DNA of 64,000 nt, taken from positions 768,001 through 832,000 of the forward strand of contig CM000431.1 in NCBI GenBank assembly GCA_000165345.1, in the 5' to 3' direction. The notes under the pieces were generated by a model. The model was not told the DNA's origin and did not search any database. It worked only from the letters and a program-made list of their open reading frames with translations. The position numbers and the translations under genes are program-made. Positions 3,980 to 62,307 of the stretch are shown piece after piece. The first letter of the stretch is position 1. Every line of letters begins with the position of its first letter.

Positions 3980-5449
3980 ATGAATCTTAGTGAAATGGAA
4001 AATATACATATTTTTTCGGGTGATATACCGGCAATTGTTTGTACGTACTTCAATAAAATCTATTTAAATAATAATTATATGTGCGACGTTAAATCTAATG
4101 AATCTAATAAAAGCCAGCAAAGTAGTATCAAACCAGGATCAATTGCCATTTTTGACTCAAGCTACAGTCGAAATAATCTTTTTAAGTTTGAAGATGAGCT
4201 TTGTAATTATTTGGGCATTGAAAATTTAATTCAAAACAATACTTTGTATTGCGCAAATGATAAAAATCAAACTTCTGTTGCAAATAAAGGGAATTTGATT
4301 GAACAACCACCTTGGAATGGGGAAATCAATGTATTTGAACAAAGAAATAATGATAGAATTTATTTAAATAAATTGAATAGCCTATTGTTTTTAAAAAGGT
4401 TAATAGGAGAGAAAAATGTTCACAATGCAGCGATTAATAGGAAAAAGTGCTCAGACTCAAGTTTCATGCCAGGATTATTAAAAAATTCCTATGGATTAAG
4501 TGGTATAAATTTAGATCTTGAAAGAGATGAAGTATTGGAGATTGTTCGTCATAAACTCGAAAACTCTGATCAAAATAGAATTATTCACTTGTCTACTGAA
4601 GTAGACTCTATATTTAGTAATATTTCAAACGAAATACTAGAGTTTTTAGACGAAGAAGCACCTCATGCATATAAGCCATCGCTTTCACTATTAATGAATG
4701 AGGATTCAATTACAAAAACTAATAATTTTAATCTTATTAAAATATCGAATTTTGCAAACACAAGATTCCTATTGGATCAAAGTAACTTTTGCAACGATAT
4801 TTGGTTGATGGACTTAAAATACATTGAAAGTTTGGGAAATGGAAATTTGAATAGCAATTTTAACCCTTTGGCTGCATTAGCATTTGCTGTATATCAAACT
4901 AGTATTACAGCAGGCGATATTAACAGTATATATGCGAATCCACTTAGTATATTAGGAAGAGCTGTAAACCATCCATTCAGAAATATTGCGATTTTTGATC
5001 AAAGTAAAGCCAGTAATATCAGAGATAATACTAGTTTTTTTGTGGATGAAAATTTTGAGTCTCTTTGTTCGAAATATTTTTTGGACATTTGCCAGAGCGA
5101 ATATTTTGGTTTGGAATTACTTGATAAATCAGAAGTTATTTCCATTATAAATGAAAATTCTTGCATTCTTGGAAAAGGAGCTGAACAAATAATTGATTAT
5201 TTGAACAAAAACACCCACAAAGTTATTCCTAATTACAGTAATTCGACTACAAACAATATGTTTCCAATTAGTATACTTCACACCATTTATAGCATAAAAA
5301 ATTGCAAGCTTATTAATAGCTTGTTTAAGAGTATATTAGGATGTAAAAGTGATTCTAAATTCCTAAATATGACGAGAGATTATTACAACTTGGAGTTAGT
5401 TGAAATCAATGAAATTTTTGAATCTGTATCGACTTTGTTAGACACCTGA
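3980..5449 (+). CDS. Hypothetical protein (489 aa), N/S-rich, no recognisable domain
   Basis: Long uninterrupted ORF starting at an ATG. It is divergent from CRM1 with a 317-bp shared upstream region, and its 3' end overlaps the SMU1 3' end by 67 nt. Confidence 0.5.
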   Translation: MNLSEMENIHIFSGDIPAIVCTYFNKIYLNNNYMCDVKSNESNKSQQSSIKPGSIAIFDSSYSRNNLFKFEDELCNYLGIENLIQNNTLYCANDKNQTSVANKGNLIEQPPWNGEINVFEQRNNDRIYLNKLNSLLFLKRLIGEKNVHNAAINRKKCSDSSFMPGLLKNSYGLSGINLDLERDEVLEIVRHKLENSDQNRIIHLSTEVDSIFSNISNEILEFLDEEAPHAYKPSLSLLMNEDSITKTNNFNLIKISNFANTRFLLDQSNFCNDIWLMDLKYIESLGNGNLNSNFNPLAALAFAVYQTSITAGDINSIYANPLSILGRAVNHPFRNIAIFDQSKASNIRDNTSFFVDENFESLCSKYFLDICQSEYFGLELLDKSEVISIINENSCILGKGAEQIIDYLNKNTHKVIPNYSNSTTNNMFPISILHTIYSIKNCKLINSLFKSILGCKSDSKFLNMTRDYYNLELVEINEIFESVSTLLDT

Positions 5450-7277: not shown

Positions 7278-7643
7278 TTACGAAATTTCTTGAATATAGT
7301 GCTTGAAAAATGATCCCAATGAACTTTCAAATAATTGATTATCTATTAAAGACCCGTAATTATATTCGGGGGATTTTATAACATTTTCTAGATAAATGGT
7401 AGAGTATAGTTGCCTGAAATGATATTAATTAAAATTTACTTAATATTTTAAATGATTAATTACCTCAGCAGCTCATTTCCGTAGTGAATTGATGGATGCA
7501 CCATCAAAATAAACTAAATTTTTAATTAAAATAATCACTAAATAGTTTTAACTAACCTTGTGCCCTGAAAGAGTTTCAAAACAATACAGCTTGTATAGTT
7601 CCGTGGTATAGGAAATAAATCTAAAGTGTTTAATAATAAACAT
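7278..7643 (-). CDS. TRAPPC2/sedlin (Trs20)-like small protein. Hand-built 3-exon model (7557..7643, 7464..7513, 7278..7413), probably missing one or more 5' exons further upstream, up to about 8013.
   Basis: Not in the ORF track. Splicing GTTAGT (43-nt intron 7514..7556) and GTAATT (50-nt intron 7414..7463) gives MFIIKHFRFISYTTELYKLYCFETLSGHK|FILMVHPSIHYGNELLR|QLYSTIYLENVIKSPEYNYGSLIDNQLFESSL.... The pieces ELYKLYCFETLSGHKFILMVHP and LYSTIYLENVIKSPEY...LIDNQLFESS resemble sedlin-family motifs (YKVYGYVTNSKVKFVMVV and LYVKTLMNPFY...IRSPAFDSR). Intron sizes match the other introns in the window. Confidence 0.45.
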
Positions 7644-8126
7644 TTTCTTTGCAAATTTTTGAGATAAATTTACCCGTCCTTATCATTGGTAATGTTTGGA
7701 ATAAGCCTTTTACAAAAAGACTTCATTGAGAATAAAAGTCCATTAAGTAGACGAATATGCCTATAGTATTTCTTTGAACTGTGCCTTTTTGGAACACCTT
7801 GTGTTTCGCAAAATTCATCTTTATGTGAAGATTTGGAAAGAAAGTTCCTGCGATTTTTGTATTTAGTATTAAAAATATGTGAAACTAAAGCTTAACTAAC
7901 CTCCAGTAATTTGATGCTTCTGCTTCAGCAATATTTACATGAAATACACATGTTTGTCTATGGAATATCGTCAAGCTATATATTAATAATTCAACGGATT
8001 CTTTTGCACGCATTAAGCCAATTTTTTCTTCTTTTTAAAGTTAGTGGAAACGGCGGTAACATGATTCCGTAAAGTGTGCATATTCTTTAAGTTGAATGAA
8101 ATAATTAGTAAAATTGTTGAATATTA

Positions 8127-11132: not shown

Positions 11133-13037
11133 TTATTCATTTATAAAAGATTCTGTATATTTTTTTTGTCGTTTAATCGAGAAATCCTCAGCTAATTCTT
11201 GTATTTTCTTTAATAGTAAAGCTTCGCTATTTAATGTTTCATTGTACTCTAACTTAATTTCTTTTAACTTGTTTAGTGAATCTGCCATAATAATAAATAT
11301 TTTTGATTCAAGTTCCTTAAATAACTCTATAATGCACATTGATTCACCTACTTTGCTTATTTCCAGGGAGTTAATTTCATCATTAGATTGCGTCGAAACA
11401 AAGCTAGCTCTGTTTAATTGCTTATCCGAGTAATTTATTTCACTTTGCTGAAATAGTGAATTGTTCTCTTTTTCTGAAAAGGAGTTATTTTCAATAATAG
11501 TTTCGTTAACTTTTTTACTTGATATTTGACTTGAAAATTCACTTAAGGAATTAATTACATCATATATATTATTATTTATGTGATGAATCAAGTTCAGACC
11601 ATAGTTATTCTCATCTTGAAAAATTTTCTTCTCTTCAACAGTAACTAGTCCGGAAATTATAGTTTGTGAAGAAGATTCAATCTGCGATTTTTTTTTAGAT
11701 TTAACCTTCTGATCAAAAGAGTTGATCCCGATATTACAGTTGCAAGTACATGACAGATCATTTTCTTCATTATCATTTAGTAATTGATTAGATATTTTAA
11801 CCTTGATGTTTTTTGCTCTGTTAGCATATTTCAACGTGTTATGAGATTCTTCAAATGCTTTGGATGATGGGGAAATATTTGCAATCATTACAACAAAGCA
11901 TTTTTCACCTTCTAAACTATTCTTTAATATATGAGTCAATTTTGAGTCTCTATATTTAACATGGTATCTATTATCATTATTCTGGTTAAGAATGGACTGC
12001 CCATCAATGCTCGAACTTGATAAAGCCAAAGAATTAATACAGTTAGCTAGAGCTAGTAGTGAACGATTAATATGCGCACCTTCAGTTAATCTAATTCCCC
12101 TGTTTTGCGTTGCGCTTGCTCTTTCAGAGCCAGCTAGATCAATAAACGAAATCTTGCACCAAAGTTGAGGATTTGTTGAGTTGTTTATTGAGGGCTTGTA
12201 CAGTTTTTCACTAGGAAAATGATCATTTCTATAGTTATTGCTTCTAATGAATTTATGTGGATTGTTATTTGCAGATATATTAAATAACTTTTTTCTTTCT
12301 AAAAATATAGATAGTTGGAAAATTGCATGGCTTCTTGAAGACACATTATTTGCGACAGTTTGTTCAATCTTTCGGTATTTATTTCCGAAATTTAAAGCTT
12401 GAATTCCCTCCTTACTGTTTTCAATTAGTAGTTGAGTCAGGTTGCTAATTTGTATATTTGATTGATCTTCAAGTATTTCACAAGAATATTGACAATTTGA
12501 AGAGTTATTGGATGGATTCAGCAAATCTCTAATTGTTTCATTGTAAATTTCCATGTATGATGCAGTTACAAAGAAATTTGAGTTAGGCTTTAATTCATTT
12601 GAGCTATTATTTTCACTACTGCTCATATCGGAGTTATTATCTTTAACAAACCTTTCATCGCTGAAAAGATATTCAAATGTTTCATTGATCCCTCTAATTA
12701 CTATCCCAGGATTTTTCTCGTTTCCAATAATGGTATATGTTTTACCAGTACCAGTTGCACCATAAACAAATACAGTTAAATTAATTCCATTTGATATTGC
12801 ATTTTTAAGAAAATTACATGTTGATATATTGTAAACAGTCTCCTGATCAGCATTAGGTGGGAATATATGATCAAATGTGTACTCATAATATCTAGTTTGT
12901 TGTGAAAGCAAGTATGTGTTTTTTTTTCCAGGTTTAGATATTATAACCTTTCTCTGGCCCCTTATATCTACAATATCTTCATCATCGCTCCCATCAGCAT
13001 TAGGTCGTACCCTAAGAACAACTCGAACTCTTTCCAT
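11133..13037 (-). CDS. Kinesin-like motor protein (N-terminal motor domain)
   Basis: Motor-domain hallmarks: VRVVLRVRPN, P-loop GATGTGKTYT, switch motifs SSRSHAIF and FIDLAGSERA, and YRDSKLTHILKNSLEG. There are low-complexity inserts. Confidence 0.85.
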   Translation of the reverse strand: MERVRVVLRVRPNADGSDDEDIVDIRGQRKVIISKPGKKNTYLLSQQTRYYEYTFDHIFPPNADQETVYNISTCNFLKNAISNGINLTVFVYGATGTGKTYTIIGNEKNPGIVIRGINETFEYLFSDERFVKDNNSDMSSSENNSSNELKPNSNFFVTASYMEIYNETIRDLLNPSNNSSNCQYSCEILEDQSNIQISNLTQLLIENSKEGIQALNFGNKYRKIEQTVANNVSSRSHAIFQLSIFLERKKLFNISANNNPHKFIRSNNYRNDHFPSEKLYKPSINNSTNPQLWCKISFIDLAGSERASATQNRGIRLTEGAHINRSLLALANCINSLALSSSSIDGQSILNQNNDNRYHVKYRDSKLTHILKNSLEGEKCFVVMIANISPSSKAFEESHNTLKYANRAKNIKVKISNQLLNDNEENDLSCTCNCNIGINSFDQKVKSKKKSQIESSSQTIISGLVTVEEKKIFQDENNYGLNLIHHINNNIYDVINSLSEFSSQISSKKVNETIIENNSFSEKENNSLFQQSEINYSDKQLNRASFVSTQSNDEINSLEISKVGESMCIIELFKELESKIFIIMADSLNKLKEIKLEYNETLNSEALLLKKIQELAEDFSIKRQKKYTESFINE

Positions 13038-18205: not shown

Positions 18206-19626
18206 TTATTTACTTTTGTTTGCATGAATGAATTTTTTAAGTTTATTAGACTTTTTCTGAATTATTTTTAGATGGTCTTGAATTGACCTATTTTCAATAA
18301 TGTAAGGATCTCCGCTATTCATTATAAAAGAGTATAGAATCTCATATTCCGTGCATTTCATAATCAGTGAATAGATTACTTGGTCAATTATTCTTATGAA
18401 TTCTTCTGAATTGATCAACTCTTTGATTCTATGTAATTTATCTAAAGTTTTACACTCCAAGACTTTGTTCGTATGAAAAGAAGAATAGCTGCAAGCATTA
18501 AATATTAGGAGAATTACCGGAATAATTATCTTTTCTACAGAATACTTTAAATATGTTAATGTAATTTCGACTCCCTTCGAATAAATAAAAATCATACACC
18601 ATTTTTCTGATATTTTTATTAGCCTAATTAATGAAATAATAATTGGGAATGCAATACTGTTTGTACAATTCCTCAAATCGTTTTGTTTTAATACATCAAG
18701 AAGTAATCCGATAATTCCCATATAAACTAATTGTTTGCATTCTTTTTCACTGCCTTGAGTAATAATTATTCTACATAAAATTTTAATTGTTTGTAACCTT
18801 ATTGGTACGCATTCATCATACATTAAGACGAATATTGAAGGACATAATTCCAATGGCTGGATAAAATCTAATGCTAGACAATCTTGGCTATCTGCCTCTA
18901 CCATTTTAATAATAGTTGAAATATATTTAATACCCCATATTCTCATTGAAATATCGTCAGAAAATATTAACTCAGATATTTCATTTTTTAATTTAACCCA
19001 CGTGTATGAAGCTGCAGTTGGAGAAAATCGAATTAATCCTATTATTGTACGTAATAGTGCATTCTTCAATCTATGGGTTATACAATTATCATTTTGTTTC
19101 TTAAAAATTTGGATTAACAATTCCAATAATCCAATCTTAATTGCAACTCTGCAAAACATTGGTTGTTCTTTTTCGATGAAATGAAATAATATTAATGATA
19201 ACAATTGTTCAACCTCGCTTGTGTTACTTTCGTGATTTTCATTTAGAGTGATTTCAAAAATATTAATTATTGAATATAAAAATGATTGATTTGACAAAGT
19301 CTAATTAATGAAGTTTTCAAATTTATAGGTGATTAATTTAACTTACTTGAATAGTTTCATTCGGGAAGATTCTAGCATATGTTGCAAGTATATGTAAAAT
19401 AGATATTCTGATTTTCATCTAAAAAAATTTGAATTAATTTCATTACTTGCTTTAATTCAACTTACATTAAGCTTTATTTCATCTTTATTATTTGGAGCTC
19501 TGTAAGTTGGAGAGTGCTTTATTAATAATTCAACAGCATCTGGGCAAACTACCTGTGGAGATACAAGCTTCTCGAAAAACCCACATCTTGCAAAATGAGA
19601 AATTTTTCTAATAAAAGATAAATTCA
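18206..19626 (-). CDS. ARM/HEAT-repeat-like hypothetical protein, 3 exons (19466..19626, 19347..19418, 18206..19300)
   Basis: The ORF-track entry 18206..19297 begins at an in-frame TTG. Upstream, two 46-47-nt GTAAGT...TAG introns (19419..19465 and 19301..19346) join exons encoding MNLSFIRKISHFARCGFFEKLVSPQVVCPDAVELLIKHSPTYRAPNNKDEIKLN | MKIRISILHILATYARIFPNETIQ | TLSNQSFLYS... in frame. Confidence 0.55.
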
Positions 19627-19917
19627 TCGATATTATTCATCAAAATAAGCTTTTTATTTTGAAGAGACTTAATAATTCTACTCATGTTAATATTTGAAAT
19701 TGCAAAACAAGTTTATCTAATGTAAATAAGTGTGGAAAAACAAAAATTTAGGTAAAGATCAATACCAAAATATTAATAAAAGATTATTCCTATATAATAT
19801 GTTTTTAAATAAAATTTTTAACTTTTAAATTTGTGTGTGTTACATTGTGTGAACAGGAAATAAAGTTTCACATGTTCCCTTACGTTTGCCTTAATAGAAA
19901 TGGTTTAAAATATCACC

Positions 19918-23035: not shown

Positions 23036-23533
23036 TATTTAAATTTATATTAATGATCTGTCTTATTTCTCAACTGTGCATGACAAGAGTAGTAAAATAG
23101 TTTTTATATATAGACGAAAGCTACACTAAATTAAAGTGTAATCTTGAAGCTTTTTTAATTAACAAGATGATTCGCCGTCTTATGTTATTTTCCCATACAA
23201 ATGATCATAAATAAATTTTTAATTAATTAGGCATAATATCCTCACACCCCGCAACAAAGTTGAATGTCTATTACATTATCTAAATAAGAGAGAATTGATT
23301 TCACTTAAACGAGAAAAAGAGGACAATGAAAAAATATATTACTTTATCTTTGAAATTGTTTAGGATCTACCTATCATAATTGCAGTAATAAAAATCTATT
23401 TTTAATTTTCCTTTTCATTTTGAATTTTAGCGAGTAAAAAAATTAGCCAATAAAAAAATTTGAATTTATTAAATCTGTGGGCTAACTTGTCTTTGCAAGA
23501 AATTAGAAATCTAAAAAAATGTTAATAAACAAT

Positions 23534-24469
23534 TTAATTCACTTTATTTGAACTTACCCAATTGTACGATCTAGGAATAAAACCTGGAATGTAGTTGGAA
23601 TATGATTTCATAAAACCATTGATTTGAGAATTAGCAACTCTAAATGCATATTGAACAAAAGGATCAATAGGATATTTCAATCTTATCAAACTCCAGTATA
23701 TGGAAATATAAACTATACTGATTCTTCTTGTAAGCACTGCAAAGAAAATATAAATTCCCACTACAAATACTTCAAAATATGCTTTTCTTTGATACAATTT
23801 GTTTTTGTTTTTGTTAGCGAGGTCGAAAATATTAATTATTTGAATATTGTTTACAATAGGTTGGTATTTTGATACAATGAATAATGAAGTAATTGCAGGA
23901 ATGAAAAATATCATAGGAAATGAATAGATTAGACCAAAATATGCAACAACCGAAATTAGTGAGTGGAATGATTCTTCAATAAGGATCTTTTGCCAAAAGT
24001 CAATGGAAAGCAATTTAATAGGTTTAATTGAAATATCATATAAGTGTGATCCAAGACCCAGAATGTAAAATAAAGAGCTTATTCGTACAAGTAAATACGT
24101 AAATTTAGATCCACGAATGATTGGAAGGAAATTCAAAATTGGAATTATTGATGAAATCAAAAGTGAAATAGAAAGTGATAATATCATCCATTGTTTGTAT
24201 CCTGTGGAAAGTAATAGTTTTGATTCATTACTTTTGGCTTGGGAATTAAAGCTCGAGAATTTACTCTCTTCTTGATATTTATTATAGTTATGTTCTTTAA
24301 GTTGTATCTCAAGATTAGGGTTCACATTCTTTTTAAACCATTTCCTTTTAAAAGTGGTTAGTTGAGATGCAGATGGCGTCGGGTAAAGATTATTATAATA
24401 TTGCTGCCATAATGTGCTCTTTGACCAATCATATTCCAAAAACTCCTTCTGTGCTTCTTCAGGAGTCAT
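23534..24469 (-). CDS. TMEM33/Pom33/Tts1-family multi-pass membrane protein
   Basis: Several hydrophobic helices. The C-terminal segment IYWSLIRLKYPIDPFVQYAFRVANSQ resembles the TMEM33 motif IYYRFLTLRYSSRRNPYCRTLFNELR. An alternative last exon is possible (see findings). Confidence 0.55.
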   Translation of the reverse strand: MTPEEAQKEFLEYDWSKSTLWQQYYNNLYPTPSASQLTTFKRKWFKKNVNPNLEIQLKEHNYNKYQEESKFSSFNSQAKSNESKLLLSTGYKQWMILSLSISLLISSIIPILNFLPIIRGSKFTYLLVRISSLFYILGLGSHLYDISIKPIKLLSIDFWQKILIEESFHSLISVVAYFGLIYSFPMIFFIPAITSLFIVSKYQPIVNNIQIINIFDLANKNKNKLYQRKAYFEVFVVGIYIFFAVLTRRISIVYISIYWSLIRLKYPIDPFVQYAFRVANSQINGFMKSYSNYIPGFIPRSYNWVSSNKVN

Positions 24470-31470: not shown

Positions 31471-32739
31471 CTAGTTGATAAGATACTCAACAGAAATAAC
31501 TTTTGATTTGTTACCAACAAGGTCGCTATCTGATATAATAGTCTTATCCCCATTCAAAGCTTCTACCTTAATAATGTCCTTGTTAATATCAATGACTTCT
31601 TGAGAACCAATTTTTTCGCGTGTTTGATTTGATGAAATAGGGGCAGATGGATGCGAGATACCCACCAGTTCATTCTCAGGTGATGAAATATTATCTTCTT
31701 GGTTAACTTGCTCAGCGTTAATTGGCTTAATACCTAATGTATGAACAATCCTTAATTCATCGTCAATACCAAGTAATTCTTGGATAATTAATGGATGCAA
31801 AGTTGAAGAACCAATTCTAAATGTATTTGGTGATGAAACATATTCATTGCCAAGAACATCTTCAACTTGCTTGATAAATTCCCTAGCAATATCCAACGAA
31901 CTAACACCTCCTTGAAGTTTTATACCTACTTTGCGCTTCTGTAAATATCGCAACCTATTTGGAAGGATTAGAGTTCCTTTAACAAAGCTCTCATCATAAT
32001 GAGCTTGTAATCCCTCCAAAACCTCTTCATCGTCACCAGCAGCAATTTCTTTATCACAGGGAGATTCTCCTTCGATGGAAGATTTTACTTCTATAAGAAG
32101 TTGTTTTAGATCTTGACTATTTAATCCTTTTTTAACTTTTCCTGTACATGTTACAATAAAATCAGCACCACCAAGAATTGCACATCTAACCAATGACGAT
32201 AATCTAGATGCTTCGTTGATTTCACCTATTTCTAGTACTACCTTCAATAATATGTTTGGGCCAATCAATGATTTTACACGTGCAATTTCATTTATTACCT
32301 TCTCCATCTGCTGTAATAGCAATTGATGTGTATATTTGTATAACATTGGGTATATAAAGCTCCTGAAGTAGAATATTAATGGCTCAAATTAATATAAACA
32401 TGAATTAACTTACCTATAATCAACAACATATTCGATTTCATGTACTTTGTAATACTCAACTGCATTATATATTTCAGCATCAATAGCCTCCGAGCAGCCA
32501 TCACCTCTTGGCCAAGCTACAACAGTGGATAATGCTGTGCTGCTATTTTCAGGTAGTGAATGTTTGACAGATGGAATAAATTGCGGATAGGTTGAAATAG
32601 AAACAGGAGCTAAAAGTTGATCTGAAGATGCCTCTCTTATTGCATTCTTCAATAATTTATTGTTCATTTCCGAAGTGTAAAGTGTAAGCTCACAAACATT
32701 TGCAACCTTTCTTAAAAATTCTTTTTGATCTTCTTTCAT
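31471..32739 (-). CDS. Deoxyribose-phosphate aldolase (DeoC/DERA)-like class I aldolase, 2 exons (32414..32739, 31471..32362)
   Basis: The two track ORFs are joined in frame by a 51-nt intron (32363..32413, GTAAGT...TTCAG; the ORF-1 stop codon is the TAA inside GTAAGT). The product contains GGADFIVTCTGK (compare the DeoC active-site region GADFIKTSTGF), GIKLQGGVSSLDIAREFI and VAWPRGDG. Confidence 0.7.
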
Positions 32740-33032: not shown

Positions 33033-33857
33033 AAGAATTATAAAGCAAACATGCACACTATGCGCAACAACATGTCTCCTGCAGCTAGTGTTTTTTATTT
33101 TCAAAGATTCAAGCCGCAATGTAAGAAATTCGAAAATTAATACAATAAGTAAACATTAACTGTAAACAGATGGATTAGTTATAACAAAACTACTTTTATA
33201 GTAATATGTAAACCATAATTTCAATCTATTTTTTGGTATTTATAGAAAATGTACTAATTTCTGGCGCTCACATGTCACAATTCACTTTCAATTATTGATT
33301 CTATTGTATGTGAGAATTGGAAATTTGAAACTATTTCAGATGTATCCATACTTGAGAAGTAGTTTGACATTGCAGTTGCTGTTTTATAAGAATTTATGTT
33401 CATTGAACAATCAGAGTTATTGTCTTCTATTCCACCATCGCACTCGACATCTATTGCTTCACTTTTACTTTGAAAATTTATATCTATAGTGTTATTTGTC
33501 TTACTTAACATATCTATGGGGTCCACTCTCCAATAATTGAATGAATTATACTAAGGGAAAGAGTTAATAAAAGAAAGTCAATGGAACTATTCACAAATAA
33601 ACACATTGATATTTAGAAATCAAGTTCAAATTCATTAAAAAATTAGATTAAGAGAGATAGATCGAAATAAAACACTACCAAAATTTATTTCATCAGTCTA
33701 TCGTGTTTAATCCTATTTTCAATGATTTCACATTGCTTTTATATAGAATTTGAACCCAATAGTCTAATATGATCATGCTTACAATTTCAAGTGTTTATTT
33801 GTAAGAATAGTAGCAACATAACTGAAATGAGAATGGTAGCAGTAACTTTCCCTAATC

Positions 33858-35896
33858 TTAGACAATAATTTGATCCCGATCAATATTTTCTAAGTTACAG
33901 GTGCATGTCAACCAGTCACAGCCTCCATCTAAAGCAGAATGTTGCAGTAGTTTATATTTTCGACGAACCTGATCATCCAAAATATCCAATTGATTGTCAT
34001 CATTCTCAATAAAATTGCATGTATCTTTGTTTAAATTATTTTTTGTAGATTCGCTAAGCGGTGGGAACATATATTCAACTATTTCTGATAGAGTCTCGTA
34101 TCTAAAATTGAGGTTAATATTTTAAGAAAAAACAAAATATTGTGAACTTACGTTTTTGCATAGGTCTTATTTATATGATGTATCACCCCTTTTGGATCTA
34201 TTATGAAAATTTTTCCTTCGGGAATTCCTACATGAGAATATGAACGATAGTCGGTATCTCGATTTCCAAATCCGGCATAAAGGGGGTTTCTATAAATTGG
34301 GAACAAGTTTCGGATATCTCTCAAGGCAGCAATTTTGAAAATATATGGCTTTCTATCTATTACTTCTCTCTTAAATGATGGAAAGAGTCGATCAGGAGAC
34401 AAAAAAACAGGTCCATCCGGTAAAGTTACATTACCAGAATTTCCTACCTGCTTCAACCCAAATAAAAAGTCACGGGTTGCATCCGCTTGACCAATCGCCC
34501 TAGCAGTTAAGTAAACAATTTTGTAGCCATTGGATTCAATATTAGTCATAAGTTCCGCTACACCCTGGTGTGACCAATCTCTCCCAACAATTGGCATAAG
34601 CTGCCCCAATACATCCGAGCGTGTAATTGTGCCATCTACATCTGATACTACAATCCTCGAATCAGGAGGCCAAAGATAAATAGTCCCACTTACAGTCTTC
34701 CTACCCTGTAAAGAAGACTCAACAGTATAAGTTACTCGATTTGCGCCCCATTTCAAATTCATGCTTTTCAATTGGTCAGATGTTGGTCTCAAAGAGTGTC
34801 TGAGGTACTTAACTGGAGGTTTTGATCTGCATAAGTATATGCAATTTGGTGTGTTAGTTGGATTATCCATTCTTAATAAATTTGGAGAACTTGATATGCT
34901 TTCAATACTTTCAAATGAAGATACTTCACAATTGTCAACAGAAACAGGCGCTGTAAGACAGCCTTGAATATGAGATTTAGAAGAAAGTGGCAATGTTGAT
35001 GAGAGGCACCTATTTGCACGGTGGTTCCCACTAATGTGATCAAAGTTAGAGTCAATAATTCCACAGTCTGAAGATGAGCGGATTTTTTTGGAGCTTTTTT
35101 CGGGTATTCCTAAGAACTTCTTCAATGCTTGCGTTGATGGAGGCTTGCCAAATGCAATTATTGATGTAATTACTGGATAAAACGCTTTAATTGGATAATA
35201 AGGAGGCTTTCCATCTATAACTGCAACTAGGCACGAATGATACCAAAGGTCTGGATCATTTTCGAACTGTTCAAAGGAGATAATATTACTTTGAAATACA
35301 TATTCATCATGTCTTGAGTCTTCCTCACCTCCATATAGTAAGTGACCACAGAGAGATAGCGTAATGTTGTATCTCTGAAAAACTTCATTTATATTTTGAA
35401 TATTTTCATTTTCAGTTTCTATATTTGTGAAATTTGAAGGGTCAGTACTATCTGTCTTATTTCTATACTCGACAGTAGTTTCAAATGACTTAGCATGGGA
35501 TATATTTAAACTTGAATTATTTGCTGGCTGTGAAGGCGTACTAATTTCCACATCACTTGGCGATGATTCACGGGAATCCGTTGGAGAAGAAATGTTTTCA
35601 AAACTATCTTCAGGGGGATCATCTTGGTGAATAAAGTATGCCTCGCCCGCAGCTCCTAACTTCATTTTTAATGGGATATCATTCCCATTAACATTAATTG
35701 AGACATGTTTCTCTCTACTTTTAAGTAACTTTGCTTTACCAAATCTAACATGGAAAGGAGTGCTATGAAGTGTTCCGTCCGCCTGAGGTACCACAATGAT
35801 ATCAATACATCCGCTTAAGGTTGCTTGGTTTATGTCCAATACTGAGCTAACCGAGCTTACGATCCTTCCCCACATCTTCTTACTAAAAAAATACAA
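33858..35896 (-). CDS. Lipin/PAH1-family phosphatidate phosphatase, 2 exons (34152..35896, 33858..34101)
   Basis: [61 protein letters not shown]-type catalytic motif [14 protein letters not shown] (DxDGT) with the LNS2/C-LIP region. A 50-nt intron (34102..34151, GTAAGT...TTTTAG, branch-like TATTAAC) joins the 70-aa downstream ORF in frame. Confidence 0.8.
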
Positions 35897-36405: not shown

Positions 36406-37374
36406 GTGTTTGCGAATACTATTCACAAATTCATGCAATCGAAAAAAATAGAATTACATGATACAGACTCGAATGCACCCTTGTTACCATACTTAAGGAG
36501 GCTATTCAATACACTAAATAGAGAAATATGTTTATTCTACCTTCCATTAAATTTACCTTGCATGTACTCAGTTCCTTTTATAGAACAAGAACATTTAATT
36601 AAAAACCTATCAAGCGCTGACAACATTGATATATCTAGTTCAAAAAAAAGCTTTAACAGAAATAACAAGGTAGAGTTAATTAAGAGTCTCTATGTATATA
36701 GACACTCAAAAGAGTTTTGTTATATTGAAAGCTGCATTGATAGTGTGAGAGTTAGTCTTAAGTTCTACTTTAAATGCGAATTTGAAAGAAGATTGTTCAA
36801 TCAGCTAACGATTTTTATGAAGAAGAATTCAGATTATTTGCAATTAGTGAGAAAAAAATCGATTGAAGGATTTGATATTAGCTTTTTAATTACAAACCAC
36901 ATTTTAAATTCATACAACAATAAGATTTGTATAAGTAATAAAAGTAACTATGATGGCCAAATGGGTAAATATGATGTGATTCATTTTATTTTGAAATTTG
37001 TTGTTGATATTGATAGACAAATTCAAGACAAAATGCTTCAATCAACATATTTCTCGAGATATTATATTAGAAAACTACTTCAAGAATTCAATGTTAATGT
37101 TTTATATAAGCAGAATAGCATCAATATTCCTAAACATAAAAAACAATTAGATGAAACAAACAAATCGGAAATAAAAGGAATAGATCCTAACAAAGCTGAA
37201 ATAAGTATCAGTGAGAAAAATAATAATTTATTAGAGACTAAAAAGAGCCTAACATCTACGAAAAATATCAATTCAGGAAGTATAGCAACTCAATTAAATG
37301 ATTCAATAGGCCGAGATGCTATTGTGCTGAAAGCACTGAAAACTAGGAATCGAATAAAAAATTTAATTAACTAA
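36406..37374 (+). CDS. Hypothetical protein (about 320 aa). The track start is a GTG; the first ATG is about 36433.
   Basis: Uninterrupted ORF with a K/N-rich C-terminus. Its stop overlaps the stop of the convergent GCN2-like gene by 4 nt. No domain recognised. Confidence 0.45.
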   Translation: MFANTIHKFMQSKKIELHDTDSNAPLLPYLRRLFNTLNREICLFYLPLNLPCMYSVPFIEQEHLIKNLSSADNIDISSSKKSFNRNNKVELIKSLYVYRHSKEFCYIESCIDSVRVSLKFYFKCEFERRLFNQLTIFMKKNSDYLQLVRKKSIEGFDISFLITNHILNSYNNKICISNKSNYDGQMGKYDVIHFILKFVVDIDRQIQDKMLQSTYFSRYYIRKLLQEFNVNVLYKQNSINIPKHKKQLDETNKSEIKGIDPNKAEISISEKNNNLLETKKSLTSTKNINSGSIATQLNDSIGRDAIVLKALKTRNRIKNLIN

Positions 37375-42152: not shown

Positions 42153-42812
42153 ATGATATTTTTGTCTCTAATCGGTGCATTTGAGCCCTTTATAAGCATA
42201 GATAACCTCAAATTTATTGTGAAAAACCTTCAGATTTTAACAGGGAAAGAAATCAAGTTTATTAAGCATGCAGAAACTAATATAAATTTGGTTATGAAGG
42301 GAAGGTGTAGTGTTGGTAATATTTCTGACCTTAAGGACTATGCAGATTTGAAGGAGCAATCAAATCCAGGGAATCATCAACAGATCTCTACAAATTCTAT
42401 GCTGGAAGTATTGCTTAAGATGAAAAATAAATTCATCACAGAAAACTCAAAAAATCAGATGGATTCCAACTTTTTTTTAATTGGAATAACAAGTTTGGAT
42501 ATATTTCCAACAAATGATCATGAATATGTATTCGGTCAAAGCGACCCAGAAAAAGGAATTGCAATAATATCTGCATATAGGCTATATCAAAATAATAAAA
42601 ACTTAATGAATAGTCGAATATTAAAAGTAATAATGCATGAATATGGTCATTTAATGAAATTAGGGCATTGTAAACACGTATGTTTGATGTCTGTTATATG
42701 TTCGATAAGCGAACTTGATAACAGAACGCTATATTGCTGTGAAAATTGTCTAAATCAAATTAGAGAAAAAAGTTCTACATCGGAGTCAGTGAAGAACTTA
42801 TTTGAGTTTTGA
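42153..42812 (+). CDS. Archaemetzincin-family zinc metallopeptidase
   Basis: Signature HEYGHLMKLGHCKHVCLMS...(17 aa)...CCENC, i.e. HExxHxxGxxHCxxxxCxM...CxxC. Confidence 0.75.
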   Translation: MIFLSLIGAFEPFISIDNLKFIVKNLQILTGKEIKFIKHAETNINLVMKGRCSVGNISDLKDYADLKEQSNPGNHQQISTNSMLEVLLKMKNKFITENSKNQMDSNFFLIGITSLDIFPTNDHEYVFGQSDPEKGIAIISAYRLYQNNKNLMNSRILKVIMHEYGHLMKLGHCKHVCLMSVICSISELDNRTLYCCENCLNQIREKSSTSESVKNLFEF

Positions 42813-44834
42813 AATAAGTTTGTAGATGAAAGTTTGCTATATTCAATATAGTTATAAGGAACAATATTTTTCTTATCTTTAATAAAACATGCTGAGTAAT
42901 TATGTAAAATTCCGTTGGGGGATGTTATTTCATGAGCCAAAATTTCTTCTGTGCTTAAACCAATTAAATCTTCATAATTCAAGTTATGAAGATGTCGGTT
43001 GACCTTTGCATTGCTTGCATTCATAGTTAAAGTATTTGATAAATGTCTAATTACAGGCACAACACTCTTATTGTGAATATATAACTCCCATAGCCCAAAA
43101 TTACTTGACAAATAAGTACCCATTTCACAGTTGTTATTTAAACTATCCGCTGTATCAATTTTTTGTCCCTCAGACAAATTTACTGAAGGCTTGTAAGGAT
43201 TAAAAAATTGATCATTTTTATACGAATTAATTCCTTTATCATATGACCATAACTCGCCTTGTGTATTTTTCAAAATTGTGTTTACATATTCATAAATTTC
43301 ATCACTTTCATTGAGAGATAAAACCGGAAACAGTATATTTCTATGCTTTTTAATTATGCTATTAACTAGCGCAATTATCCAAACCGTATTATTCATAGAA
43401 GTAAATAATGAAATTCGAATTAACTTTTTAATGAAACAACTTAATACTGTCATGGGAATTAATGGCGAAAACAGAGAAATTGATAGTAATTTCAAGAACT
43501 TGGCTCTAACTTTCAATGAAAATACTGGAGGGCATAGCAATTCATATAATCGACGATAGTAGCCTGAACTTATATTTTCTTCACTTTCGTTATTTAAATT
43601 AAAGCCTTCGTTTAGTCTATTATTGACAATAAGGTAAAATAGCCCATTTAATGAAATTACTGAGATGGCTAACTTATCCATAGGATTTATTTTGTTACTT
43701 ATACCATCGAAACAATTTTTAAATATATCAGCAAGTTCCAATGGGTTAGATATTATTGGTATTACAAACTCTGAAACGTACTCTAATGCATCCTTTAAAA
43801 TAGGAAGTGGAATATTTCTGTTTTCATCATTATAGTTCATAATAACTATATTAATATATTTCAACCAAAGTTTTTGATAAATCACTCTATAATTCTTGTC
43901 AAATTTAGCAATTTTATCTAGATCTCCATCAAAATCAGAACCAAACATCAAATTGGTCTTGTCTTTGCGTGAACAATCAAATTCCTTTGATTGGTTTTCA
44001 TTGCTTGGACTCGGCAAGTTGACTAATATATGATGCACCCTTAAAAAAATAGTTGTTGCCAAATTAACTTTTTCGTTATTGGTTAAACCATTGTATCATT
44101 GATTCATTTTTTTTGCCAAAATTAAAGATTAATCCCTCTGAGTATTTGTTTAGAAAGTTTAAAATATTTTTCAAAAAAAAGTACCTTAAATCTTTAAAAT
44201 TTGTGATATATTCATTAAGAAGCAAATTTTCCATGATAAAGGTATCATTTGTCATGTTATTTCTACTATCTAAAATAATTCTGTTGATTTCATTGTTTTG
44301 GATAGAGCTAGTCAAAATACTTCTAATAATAAATGTGCTTAAGGAGATCGGAAAATTTCCAGTTTCGTCAAAGTTACCTTTTTCCTTCATATTTTTATAG
44401 TTTCTAATCATAATATCATCTTTAAGCCATTTCATAAATATTTGTACTATCACAGCCCGCAGATTATTTCTATTGGATGAAATACACTTACCCAAATCAT
44501 TATTTATTTGTATGCCTTCAGTACCTATATATTGGTTGTCCATAATAATAGAAGATAATTTAAGAAATTGATGAACTAATGGCTTTAATGAAGATATGGA
44601 TTCATTAACATCTTTATTTTCATCTAATAATAATTCACGAGAGAAATCACTAAAAGACTGATCAGTATCTCCCATAGAAAGAATATCAATTGGTATAGGC
44701 TCCATTGTAGCTTTTCTTGCTTCAGAAATTTGTTTGTTCAAATCTAACAACATTTTCGTAACAATTTCCAATTTAACCTTCTTAGATTTAGAAGCCTTAT
44801 TAAGCTTTTTGGATGTTTGGGAATGAGATTTCAT
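42755..44834 (-). CDS. NOC4/CBF (Mak21)-domain nucleolar complex protein, 2 exons (44089..44834, 42755..44039), about 676 aa
   Basis: Two adjacent track ORFs are joined in frame (...ESMIQW|VHHILVN...) by a 49-nt GT..AG intron (44040..44088). The C-terminal part has a CBF-domain pattern: ISLNGLFYLIVNNRLN...YYRRLYELLCPPVFSLKVRAKFLKLLSISLFSPLIPMTVLSCFIKKLIRISL (compare ASLNGLFLLM...FYRKLYALL...KYRARFFHL...LPAYLVAAFAKRLARLAL). Basic K-rich N-terminus. Confidence 0.6.
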
Positions 44835-51138: not shown

Positions 51139-51428
51139 GCTAATATTATGTATTTATATTGTATATTTATCTAGATGCAATAACTAGAAGTGCAACAAAT
51201 TTGAAGTAAATTTGTGTTGATTTTCTCCTGAAATTTTATTGTGCACAAATACTTATGGTAGCAATTAATAAATCCGCCAATTATTTTTAACGGATTATTA
51301 AAATAGAATTATATTTAGTTTAGATTATAATCAAATTAACTAATTAGAAGATATTTTTGATTCTAATGAATTTCAATAATTATTTCCAATTGAATCCAAA
51401 CTTTAATCAAAAAAAAATTTTAAAAATG

Positions 51429-51500
51429 TGCGTGTATCGGGAGTCGAACCCGAGCCATCAGTTCGGAAAACTGAGATGCTAGCCGTTACACCATACACGC
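51429..51500 (-). tRNA. tRNA-Gly (anticodon UCC)
   Basis: Minus-strand sequence GCGTGTA-TG-GTGT-AACGGCTA-GCAT-C-TCAGT-TTTCCGA-ACTGA-TGGC-TCGGG-TTCGACT-CCCGA-TACACGC-A folds as a canonical cloverleaf: 7-bp acceptor stem, T33, anticodon TCC at positions 34-36, TTCGA T-loop and discriminator A. A T-rich tract follows on the transcribed strand. Confidence 0.85.

Positions 51501-57969: not shown

Positions 57970-62307
<4,338 letters not shown>

Follow-up and report, generated by a model that had tools for sequence, protein, structure and literature searches.

Short GT-AG introns and an intron-like coding segment in a 64-kb window of Cryptosporidium parvum chromosome 3

Interrupted genes in the window

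The window analysed here is a 64,000-nt stretch of DNA (GenBank GCA_000165345.1, contig CM000431.1, positions 768,001-832,000, forward strand) from chromosome 3 of Cryptosporidium parvum Iowa II, the 2004 reference. It is 100% identical to the C. parvum sequences CP044420.1 and CP029782.1 over stretches of 21-22 kb, and a frameshifted 252-aa ORF that it contains is 100% identical to the Iowa II protein XP_626877.1. Five of the approximately 31 genes in the window are interrupted, by ten supported introns altogether (four in TRAPPC1, two in cgd3_3130, two in lipin, and one each in a gene with a 317-aa product and a gene with a 405-aa product), a density that agrees with the published C. parvum genome average of approximately 0.35 introns per gene. 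The genes for CRM1 (1266 aa) and an eIF2-alpha/GCN2-like kinase (1548 aa) have no introns, as had been stated from the sequence alone. The interrupted genes and their introns are listed below in window coordinates.

7278..8013, minus strand: TRAPPC1/Bet5 (sybindin) gene, four introns
7848..7900, minus strand: TRAPPC1 intron 1, 53 nt, GTTAGT..CAG, phase 2; orthologues 51 and 55 nt
7621..7673, minus strand: TRAPPC1 intron 2, 53 nt, GTAAAT..TAG, phase 2; orthologues 46 and 45 nt
7514..7556, minus strand: TRAPPC1 intron 3, 43 nt, GTTAGT..TAG, phase 0; orthologues 45 and 47 nt
7414..7463, minus strand: TRAPPC1 intron 4, 50 nt, GTAATT..CAG, phase 2; orthologues 52 nt (C. canis) and 54 nt (C. bovis)
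18206..19627, minus strand: cgd3_3130, armadillo-type-fold protein gene
19419..19465, minus strand: cgd3_3130 intron 1, 47 nt, GTAAGT..TAG, phase 0; orthologues 48 nt (C. meleagridis), 48 nt (C. canis) and 64 nt (C. ryanae)
19347..19418, minus strand: cgd3_3130 exon 2, 72 nt, between both introns
19301..19346, minus strand: cgd3_3130 intron 2, 46 nt, GTAAGT..TAG, phase 0; orthologues 46, 43 and 64 nt in the same three species
23469..24469, minus strand: 317-aa membrane-protein gene, annotated in three C. parvum assemblies
23511..23557, minus strand: intron of the 317-aa gene, 47 nt, GTAAGT..TAG, phase 0, preceding a 13-codon last exon; orthologues 48, 48 and 46 nt
31471..32739, minus strand: 405-aa gene, annotated as a 405-aa model
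32363..32413, minus strand: intron of the 405-aa gene, 51 nt, GTAAGT..CAG, phase 2; orthologues 51 nt (C. ubiquitum), 53 nt (C. ryanae) and 188 nt (C. andersoni)
34102..34151, minus strand: lipin/PAH intron 1, 50 nt, GTAAGT..TAG, phase 2; orthologues 47 nt (C. ubiquitum), 60 nt (C. ryanae) and 167 nt (C. andersoni)
33551..33968, minus strand: lipin/PAH intron 2, 418 nt, candidate donor GTTCGT preceded by CAG, 3' end TATTAAC-N13-TAG

The sequence-only reading from which this work started had proposed eight spliceosomal introns. All eight segments are present with the coordinates and termini reported for them, all on the minus strand, with lengths in coordinate order of 50, 43, 46, 47, 47, 51, 50 and 49 nt, donors GTAAGT (five), GTTAGT, GTAATT and GTTTAA, and acceptors ending in TAG, CAG or AAG. 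Seven of them hold up as introns, with the frame restored by their removal and their positions kept across species, and the eighth, at 44040..44088, is coding sequence. Three further introns had been missed, two in TRAPPC1 (7621..7673 and 7848..7900) and one in lipin (33551..33968). We assign a probability of about 0.93 to the reading that the seven candidates and the two 53-nt TRAPPC1 introns are U2-type GT-AG introns, that the eighth candidate is coding, and that the intron lengths are peaked and not uniform.

Evidence for the short introns

Removal of the first seven candidates leaves continuous ORFs, and in several assemblies the annotated gene span exceeds the CDS length by the proposed intron lengths. 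Public annotations include the seven introns. That of IOWA-ATCC, for which 100% RNA-seq support of the introns is stated (PMC8744675), has eight of the nine short introns plus the long lipin intron. Up to six further Cryptosporidium species keep the seven positions and their GT/AG ends. The intron interiors diverge among these species and change in length by numbers not divisible by three, and the peptides encoded after splicing remain open and conserved. Example identities for exon versus intron are 0.62 versus 0.40 and 0.80 versus 0.58. A GT start and an AG end were found in 10 of 10 supported introns and in all 30 orthologous short introns, which were taken from six species and measure 43-64 nt. 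The gastric species C. andersoni also has introns at the same positions in lipin (167 nt) and in the 405-aa gene (188 nt). The intron calls rest on this cross-species conservation and on gapless alignment to homologues, and excision of the supported introns from mRNA is inferred from annotation, from a general statement in the literature and from species comparison.

Frame interruptions such as these could also be sequencing errors or pseudogene lesions, and the Iowa II reference does have at least one frameshift error within the window, at the eighth candidate. For the remaining seven this explanation is vanishingly improbable, given that independent long-read assemblies have these segments unchanged, that six other species keep the same positions and GT..AG ends, and that segments of 43-64 nt with in-frame stops lie between conserved exon peptides. 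Single-base errors are unable to yield such a pattern of conserved segments.

The introns proposed here are further supported gene by gene. For TRAPPC1, one unique four-intron solution yields the annotated 178-aa product. Splicing of intron 2 joins a peptide ending in NDKDG to FISYTTELYKLY, which aligns with MKDGFLSFQTSRYKLH of mouse TRAPPC1. Positions 1-138 of the 140-position Pfam Sybindin profile match residues 11-171 of the product, spanning all four junctions gaplessly, and alignment to the structures 7b6d_C and 2j3t_C shows no gaps across three junctions. The Tetrahymena Pah2 structures 7lhk and 6tzy are likewise gapless across the lipin junction that follows NKTYAKT.

Splicing of cgd3_3130 gives a 442-aa product that matches KAL5369667.1 and WKS77062.1 exactly; the cluster listing for this protein consists of genomic records only. 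Exon 2 is exactly 72 nt in four of four species. Intron 2 also lies within the 388-aa model of IOWA-ATCC, a CDS that begins at exon 2 and has a separate 28-aa product annotated upstream of it. Intron 1 (19419..19465) is thus absent from any IOWA-ATCC CDS, and its support comes from species comparison and four other annotations. The expectation that ORF callers would truncate such genes is borne out here: cgd3_3130 is annotated as 317 aa in Iowa II and its orthologue as 367 aa in C. ryanae, versus 442-445 aa when spliced.

The intron at 23511..23557, which had been offered as tentative, can be upheld. Its donor and acceptor are conserved, as is the mini-exon peptide ISNFLQRQVSPQI (C. canis ISNFLARQVAPQG, C. 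ryanae ITNFLSKQVTP), and its interior is divergent. In the 405-aa gene, the spliced peptide in which VVDYR is joined to SFIYPMLYKY is kept in C. ubiquitum, C. ryanae and C. andersoni. A Pfam search of the 405-aa and 317-aa products returned zero families, and the junctions in these two genes are therefore called entirely from comparative evidence.

The intron-like segment in CBF/MAK21

The eighth candidate lies in a gene with the following features.

42755..44834, minus strand: CBF/MAK21 gene
44040..44088, minus strand: candidate eight, coding sequence and not an intron
44095..44095: extra base, A on the plus strand, specific to Iowa II

At 44095 the window reads CCATTGTATCATTG, versus CCATTGTTCATTG in CP044420.1. 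The extra base splits CBF/MAK21 into ORFs of 252 aa (XP_626877.1) and 397 aa (XP_626876.1). The gene is an uninterrupted 692-aa ORF in IOWA-ATCC and other C. parvum assemblies (at least four in all) as well as in C. hominis and C. tyzzeri, and the ORF is 695 aa in C. ubiquitum, 696 aa in C. ryanae and 677 aa in C. andersoni. Within it, 44040..44088 encodes the conserved NNEKVNLATTIFLR. What is seen at this site is therefore what a frameshift error produces, i.e., a single-base indel relative to independent assemblies in an ORF that is continuous and conserved elsewhere. The segment mimics an intron because the one-base Iowa II insertion is only seven bases away, and taking out 49 nt (48+1) compensates for it.

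Should the extra base be real, 44040..44088 could instead be a true intron specific to the Iowa II strain, and its removal does restore the frame and give a 676-aa ORF. We consider this extremely unlikely. The 676-aa product was not found in a collection of 15 billion proteins in which the 692-aa form is present, no verified splice site in the window resembles the segment's GTTTAA donor or AAG acceptor, the 16 codons that would be lost are conserved across species, and the first annotation of Iowa II has two separate genes here with no intron. The insertion, the continuous ORF elsewhere and the conserved residues together rule the segment out as an intron. Frameshift errors are known from the 2004 Iowa II sequence, relative to which Baptista et al. 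in 2022 repaired 113 fragmented genes (PMC8744675), and the eighth candidate is such a case. In the 2004 reference, frame-restoring GT..AG pairs with poor splice sites are best regarded as assembly errors, and not as introns, where they lie near homopolymers or indel-prone sites.

Intron lengths, splice signals and the long lipin intron

The sequence-only reading took all eight segments to be introns and regarded a uniform, ultra-narrow length range (43-51 nt) as a lineage signature. All but one of the window's ten supported introns do fall at 43-53 nt, and the 30 orthologous short introns of intestinal species stay within 43-64 nt. However, the 418-nt lipin intron lies in the same window, so uniformity already fails there, and the eighth candidate is coding. 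Published C. parvum values also speak against a uniform length: a median of 61 nt, mean of 82 nt and SD of 73 nt, with GTAAGT at 84% of intron starts (PMC2483917); a mean of 99 nt, with introns in 10.8% of genes (PMC4637869); and, for 1364 introns, lengths of 31-2223 nt that average 87 nt (PMC13125899 Table S1). The orthologous C. andersoni introns of 167 and 188 nt mean that short size is not a genus-wide signature. Taken whole, the uniform-length reading is thus very unlikely to be right. Intron lengths are peaked at approximately 45-55 nt, yet not uniform, and the 43-53-nt introns belong to the short class that is typical of intestinal Cryptosporidium species. Annotation with a length prior of 40-55 nt would overlook genuine long introns, the second one of lipin among them.

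The ten supported donors are GTAAGT (five), GTTAGT (two), GTAATT, GTAAAT and GTTCGT, versus GTTTAA at the rejected candidate, and the short supported introns (43-53 nt) have a G+C content of 12-25% and YAG acceptors. Such 5' splice sites, GTAAGT or near variants of it, would be expected to pair with U1 snRNA. A weak branch-like motif, TTAAY or CTAAY, may often be present approximately 9-15 nt 5' of the acceptor, although a 2008 study saw no clear branch signal in C. parvum introns (PMC2483917). Eight of 10 C. parvum introns have yTAAy at 6-30 nt from the 3' end, versus a mean of 3.6 after shuffling (P~0.005), and so do 11 of 18 orthologues, versus a shuffled mean of 6.6 (P~0.03); the motif was chosen post hoc, in A+T-rich sequence. 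The yeast-type box TATTAAC, said to occur in only one of the eight candidates, occurs in two of them (23511..23557 and 34102..34151). With regard to U12-type signals (donor /RTATCCTT, branch box TCCTTAAC), no intron sequence has an ATATCC or GTATCC donor. An Rfam scan of the window returned one tRNA only and no snRNA.

Motif searches alone add little. GTAAGT shows no enrichment across the window (21 occurrences versus 24 expected), and a loose scan for GT[ATG][ACT][GAT]T..AG at 30-120 nt with frame continuity gave 865 candidates, which is uninformative; motif plus frame alone is therefore not evidence. A strict scan of the kind proposed as a check (GTAAGT, YAG, 38-60 nt) gave 15 raw pairs in the window. 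Of these, an ORF filter kept all but one of the true GTAAGT introns, the exception failing because exon 2 there has only 24 codons, and also passed one antisense chance match (61471..61530). The related statement that in three genes the naive stop is the TAA inside GTAAGT is right for lipin and the 405-aa gene and wrong for TRAPPC1, where this stop falls within GTAATT or GTAAAT. Short GTAAGT introns cause a naive ORF caller to cut Cryptosporidium genes short or break them up, a problem already addressed by the 2015 and 2022 re-annotations.

Introns of 42-52 nt are found in the nucleomorph of the cryptomonad Guillardia theta. Like the window, that nucleomorph has very few, very short introns in an A+T-rich compacted genome with an unclear branch-point consensus, but it represents another lineage and compartment and is without a long length tail, whereas the window is part of a nuclear apicomplexan chromosome with such a tail. 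Branch points of cryptomonad nucleomorphs are discussed in PMC2483917. Hemiascomycete yeasts (GTATGT donor, TACTAAC box) share with the window a low intron number and a strong 5' splice-site consensus, and three window introns have TATTAAC 11-13 nt from the acceptor. In contrast, yeast introns are mostly much longer with a near-invariant branch box, and several window introns have a degenerate box or none. The closest known system is the same organism, as these are the same introns already annotated in C. parvum and C. hominis, described as few per gene with an A+T-rich interior and a G+C content of approximately 22%; the 2004 annotation under-called them, with 4.3% of genes rising to 10.8% and later to 1364 introns (Irimia and Roy 2008, PMC2483917; Isaza et al. 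2015, PMC4637869; Baptista et al. 2022, PMC8744675). The window introns cluster more tightly (43-53 nt) than those genome-wide, the one 418-nt intron aside. Publications on C. parvum have thus already described short introns rich in GTAAGT, a low density of introns and truncated ORFs, and the sequence-only reading, while mostly correct, describes what is already known.

For the long lipin intron, 33551..33968 is the only GT..AG solution that gives the 710-aa lipin model of IOWA-ATCC; the donor candidates are GTTCGT, or GTCTAA at the stop codon, near 33861. The exon after the intron starts with YNSFNYWRVDPID, a motif conserved in four species that resembles the WRDPLVDID element of yeast Pah1. 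The donor block, with GATGATCAG before the splice site and GTTCGTCG after it, does not vary among four species, one of them the gastric C. andersoni. The first 36 codons of the intron form a read-through ORF that is protein-conserved and ends at the same stop position. This protein-conserved read-through is the most interesting by-product of the analysis. It is possible, though on balance doubtful, that the intron is a conserved dual-use sequence with a genus-wide, regulated choice between retention and splicing that yields two alternative C-termini. If so, a single lipin/phosphatidate phosphatase would have two C-termini in a genome with only three reported alternatively spliced genes.

Two other introns in the window that are annotated in GCA_048859185.1, one of 125 nt in a kinesin gene (11133..13037) and one of 71 nt in a 489-aa ORF (3980..5449), were rejected, as in each case the uninterrupted ORF is colinear over its full length with its C. 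ryanae, C. canis and C. bovis orthologues. A 67-nt ARPC4 intron (37280..37346, GTATAG..TAG) is present in one annotation only, has a poor donor, and leaves the ORF intact if not removed. All three annotated introns are probably spurious. Public models further disagree on exon 1 of cgd3_3130, on the lipin C-terminus and, for C. canis and C. ryanae, on the exon that encodes the C-terminus of the 317-aa product. Cross-species alignment settles most of the annotation conflicts in this region.

Supported introns and their conservation

The window is part of chromosome 3 in the 2004 reference of C. parvum Iowa II. It is A+T-rich (~31% G+C) and gene-dense, and it is 100% identical to two other C. parvum assemblies, CP044420.1 (hereafter IOWA-ATCC) and CP029782.1, across 21-22 kb. 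A sequence-only reading had proposed eight introns of 43-51 nt in it, and the lengths and terminal hexamers that it gave match for all eight candidates, each on the minus strand. Seven of the eight are correct; the eighth, 44040..44088, is a frameshift artefact. The reading overlooked three introns, two short ones in TRAPPC1 and a second lipin intron of 418 nt, which brings the supported introns to ten, nine of 43-53 nt and one of 418 nt, spread over five of the window's ~31 genes. We rest these assignments on intron termini, restoration of the reading frame, positions conserved across species and interiors under relaxed constraint. The introns belong to the canonical major-spliceosome type and fall close to the lower size range, and the observation is largely real, while the interpretation first placed on it was partly right but overstated.

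Supported introns of the window, with the lipin gene
19419..19465, minus strand: intron 1 of cgd3_3130, 47 nt
19301..19346, minus strand: intron 2 of cgd3_3130, 46 nt
7414..7463, minus strand: TRAPPC1 intron
7514..7556, minus strand: TRAPPC1 intron
7621..7673, minus strand: TRAPPC1 intron
7848..7900, minus strand: TRAPPC1 intron
23511..23557, minus strand: intron of the 317-aa membrane-protein gene
32363..32413, minus strand: intron of the 405-aa gene
33275..35875, minus strand: lipin gene, IOWA-ATCC model of 710 aa, span 2601 nt
34102..34151, minus strand: lipin intron
33551..33968, minus strand: lipin intron 2, 418 nt

The flagged region lies in an armadillo-type-fold protein gene, cgd3_3130 (locus tag 3g3130 in deposits). 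With both introns removed, exons of 162 nt, 72 nt and 1095 nt join into a 442-aa ORF whose product exactly matches the C. parvum deposits KAL5369667.1 and WKS77062.1, and C. hominis and C. meleagridis also contribute 442-aa models to its 90% cluster. Iowa II as first annotated holds only the 317-aa tail, so the earlier remark that ORF callers truncate such genes is correct. Both introns occupy identical positions in C. parvum, C. meleagridis, C. canis and C. ryanae, with lengths of 47, 48, 48 and 64 nt for intron 1 and 46, 46, 43 and 64 nt for intron 2, respectively; exon 2 keeps a length of exactly 72 nt throughout, and the spliced ORFs encode 442, 442, 445 and 444 aa. The deposited C. ryanae model has 367 aa although the three-exon 444-aa ORF is present (locus L012, 10001..11104). 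IOWA-ATCC also lists a separate 28-aa product at 19488..19627, made via a 53-nt GTAGTT..CAG intron (19500..19552, minus strand) that falls within cgd3_3130 exon 1, which is coding according to other annotations and the four-species conservation. The donor GT of this segment is missing from C. meleagridis, C. canis and C. ryanae; cryptic or noisy splicing may account for the annotated intron, as may an artefact of annotation.

For TRAPPC1, the annotated product has 178 aa and a span of 736 nt, and when every set of four GT..AG segments summing to 199 nt was tried, a single solution was free of stops; it adds two 53-nt introns (7621..7673 and 7848..7900) to the two already proposed. C. canis and C. 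bovis retain all four introns. The spliced protein aligns to the Drosophila and mouse TRAPPC1 structures (7b6d_C and 2j3t_C) across three junctions, with one two-residue gap that is not near any junction, and positions 1-138 of 140 in the Pfam Sybindin profile match residues 11-171, spanning all four.

The intron of the 317-aa gene, at first offered as tentative, is convincing: its donor (GG|GTAAGTT), acceptor (TAG|AT) and 13-codon last exon are all conserved. The terminal exon encodes ISNFLQRQVSPQI in C. parvum, ISNFLARQVAPQG in C. canis and ITNFLSKQVTP in C. ryanae and has changed at synonymous sites, and the intron interior has diverged. The deposited C. canis (L010 5234..6175) and C. ryanae (L012 4923..5834) models of this gene do not include the conserved exon. 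C. ubiquitum and C. ryanae also have the introns at 32363..32413 and 34102..34151, with lengths of 47-60 nt.

Across the syntenic loci compared (C. meleagridis, C. canis, C. ryanae, C. ubiquitum, C. andersoni and C. bovis), intron identity was lower than exon identity in every alignment.

The lipin gene and its long intron

The lipin junction at 34102..34151 (...NKTYAKT|) falls in a gapless alignment to Tetrahymena Pah2 (7lhk, 6tzy). The 418-nt intron is the sole GT..AG solution that reproduces the 710-aa IOWA-ATCC model, and has the donor CAG|GTTCGT and a TATTAAC 13 nt upstream of its TAG acceptor. The downstream exon opens with YNSFNYWRVDPID; C. parvum, C. ubiquitum, C. ryanae and C. andersoni all have this conserved motif immediately following an AG. 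The motif resembles the C-terminal element WRDPLVDID of yeast Pah1 and FSNFTFWR of mammalian lipins.

The first 36 codons of this intron form a read-through ORF whose protein is conserved in the same four species and has the same length in three of them, with eight synonymous and four non-synonymous codon differences between C. parvum and C. ubiquitum. The 17-nt donor block, GATGATCAG|GTTCGTCG, is invariant, synonymous sites included. Public annotations conflict: two assemblies have a 655-aa model and a distinct 78-aa gene, another a 710-aa model. This pattern of conservation points either to retention and splicing as conserved alternatives, which would yield two conserved C-termini, or to a different donor located at the stop codon. 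In the latter case the true donor would be the GT of GTCTAA, also phase 0, and the read-through and YNSFNYWRVDPID segments would both lie in one protein.

Intron size and splice signals

The general picture of short GTAAGT introns, low density and truncated ORF calls is borne out and agrees with published C. parvum figures; it is thus established knowledge. Irimia and Roy described 213 introns (median 61, mean 82, SD 73 nt), 84% of them beginning with GTAAGT, and found no clear branch point (PMC2483917). Isaza et al. placed introns in 10.8% of genes, up from 4.3%, and counted 688 introns averaging 99 bp and 22% G+C (PMC4637869). Baptista et al. state RNA-seq support for all IOWA-ATCC introns, and describe loss and shortening of introns as already known for the genus (PMC8744675). 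IOWA-ATCC has 3892 genes and 1364 CDS introns (mean 87 nt, range 31-2223; PMC13125899 Table S1). The uniform 43-51-nt distribution that had been proposed is contradicted by these broader genome-wide lengths and by the 418-nt lipin intron in the same window.

The orthologous short introns measure 43-64 nt (n=30). In the gastric species C. andersoni, the lipin intron orthologue is 167 nt versus 50 nt in C. parvum (L015 17796..17962) and that of the 405-aa gene 188 nt versus 51 nt (L015 19625..19812), with conserved peptides restored on splicing both. From these alignments, ultra-short size would be a trait of the intestinal clade and not genus-wide.

GTAAGT is not enriched in the window (21 observed versus 24 expected), and several sense-strand copies within ORFs carry no intron annotation, so the hexamer by itself is a poor intron predictor. 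A branch-like TTAAY/CTAAY motif occurs in 8 of the 10 C. parvum introns versus 3.6 in shuffles (P ~0.005) and in 11 of 18 orthologous introns from more distant species versus 6.6 (P ~0.03), a signal that is only suggestive because the motif was picked post hoc in A+T-rich sequence. GTAAGT-like donors would pair with U1, and the motif's adenosine, ~9-15 nt upstream of the acceptor, would be used as the branch point.

The eighth candidate and other unsupported introns

The eighth candidate, 44040..44088 in the CBF/MAK21 gene (42755..44834, minus strand), is rejected as an intron in favor of a frameshift in the old Iowa II reference. Its donor GTTTAA and acceptor AAG are unlike every verified site in the window. 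Its 49 nt equal 48+1, and an extra A lies seven nucleotides away, at 44095 (plus strand), the one single-base difference found between the window and IOWA-ATCC and absent from all other assemblies examined. Without this base the gene is an uninterrupted 692-aa ORF; several C. parvum assemblies have that exact protein on deposit, and its 90% cluster also contains 692-aa relatives deposited for C. hominis and C. tyzzeri. The orthologues of C. ubiquitum (695 aa), C. ryanae (696 aa) and C. andersoni (677 aa) are likewise uninterrupted, and the NNEKVNLATTIFLR encoded by the supposed intron is recognisably conserved in all three. In Iowa II the extra base splits the gene into XP_626877.1 (252 aa), to which the window's 252-aa ORF is 100% identical, and XP_626876.1 (397 aa). 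The 676-aa product obtained by splicing matched no protein record.

A 219-aa ORF (42153..42812, plus strand) runs antisense to CBF/MAK21 and overlaps its 3' end. At the syntenic position, a Peptidase_M54 (archaemetzincin-like) gene is present in C. ryanae and C. andersoni; the annotation retrieved for C. parvum IOWA-ATCC lists no gene there.

Some annotations place introns in a kinesin gene (11133..13037, minus strand) and a 489-aa ORF (3980..5449, plus strand). Read without interruption, both ORFs are colinear with orthologues, so these introns look spurious; they may have been added to avoid overlap of convergent genes. An ARPC4 intron (37280..37346, plus strand) found in one annotation only is not supported, a judgement made on donor quality and ORF need: its GTATAG donor is poor, and the ORF is intact without its removal. 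A tRNA-Gly(TCC) gene (51428..51500, minus strand) lies between the 719-aa gene and the PheRS gene.
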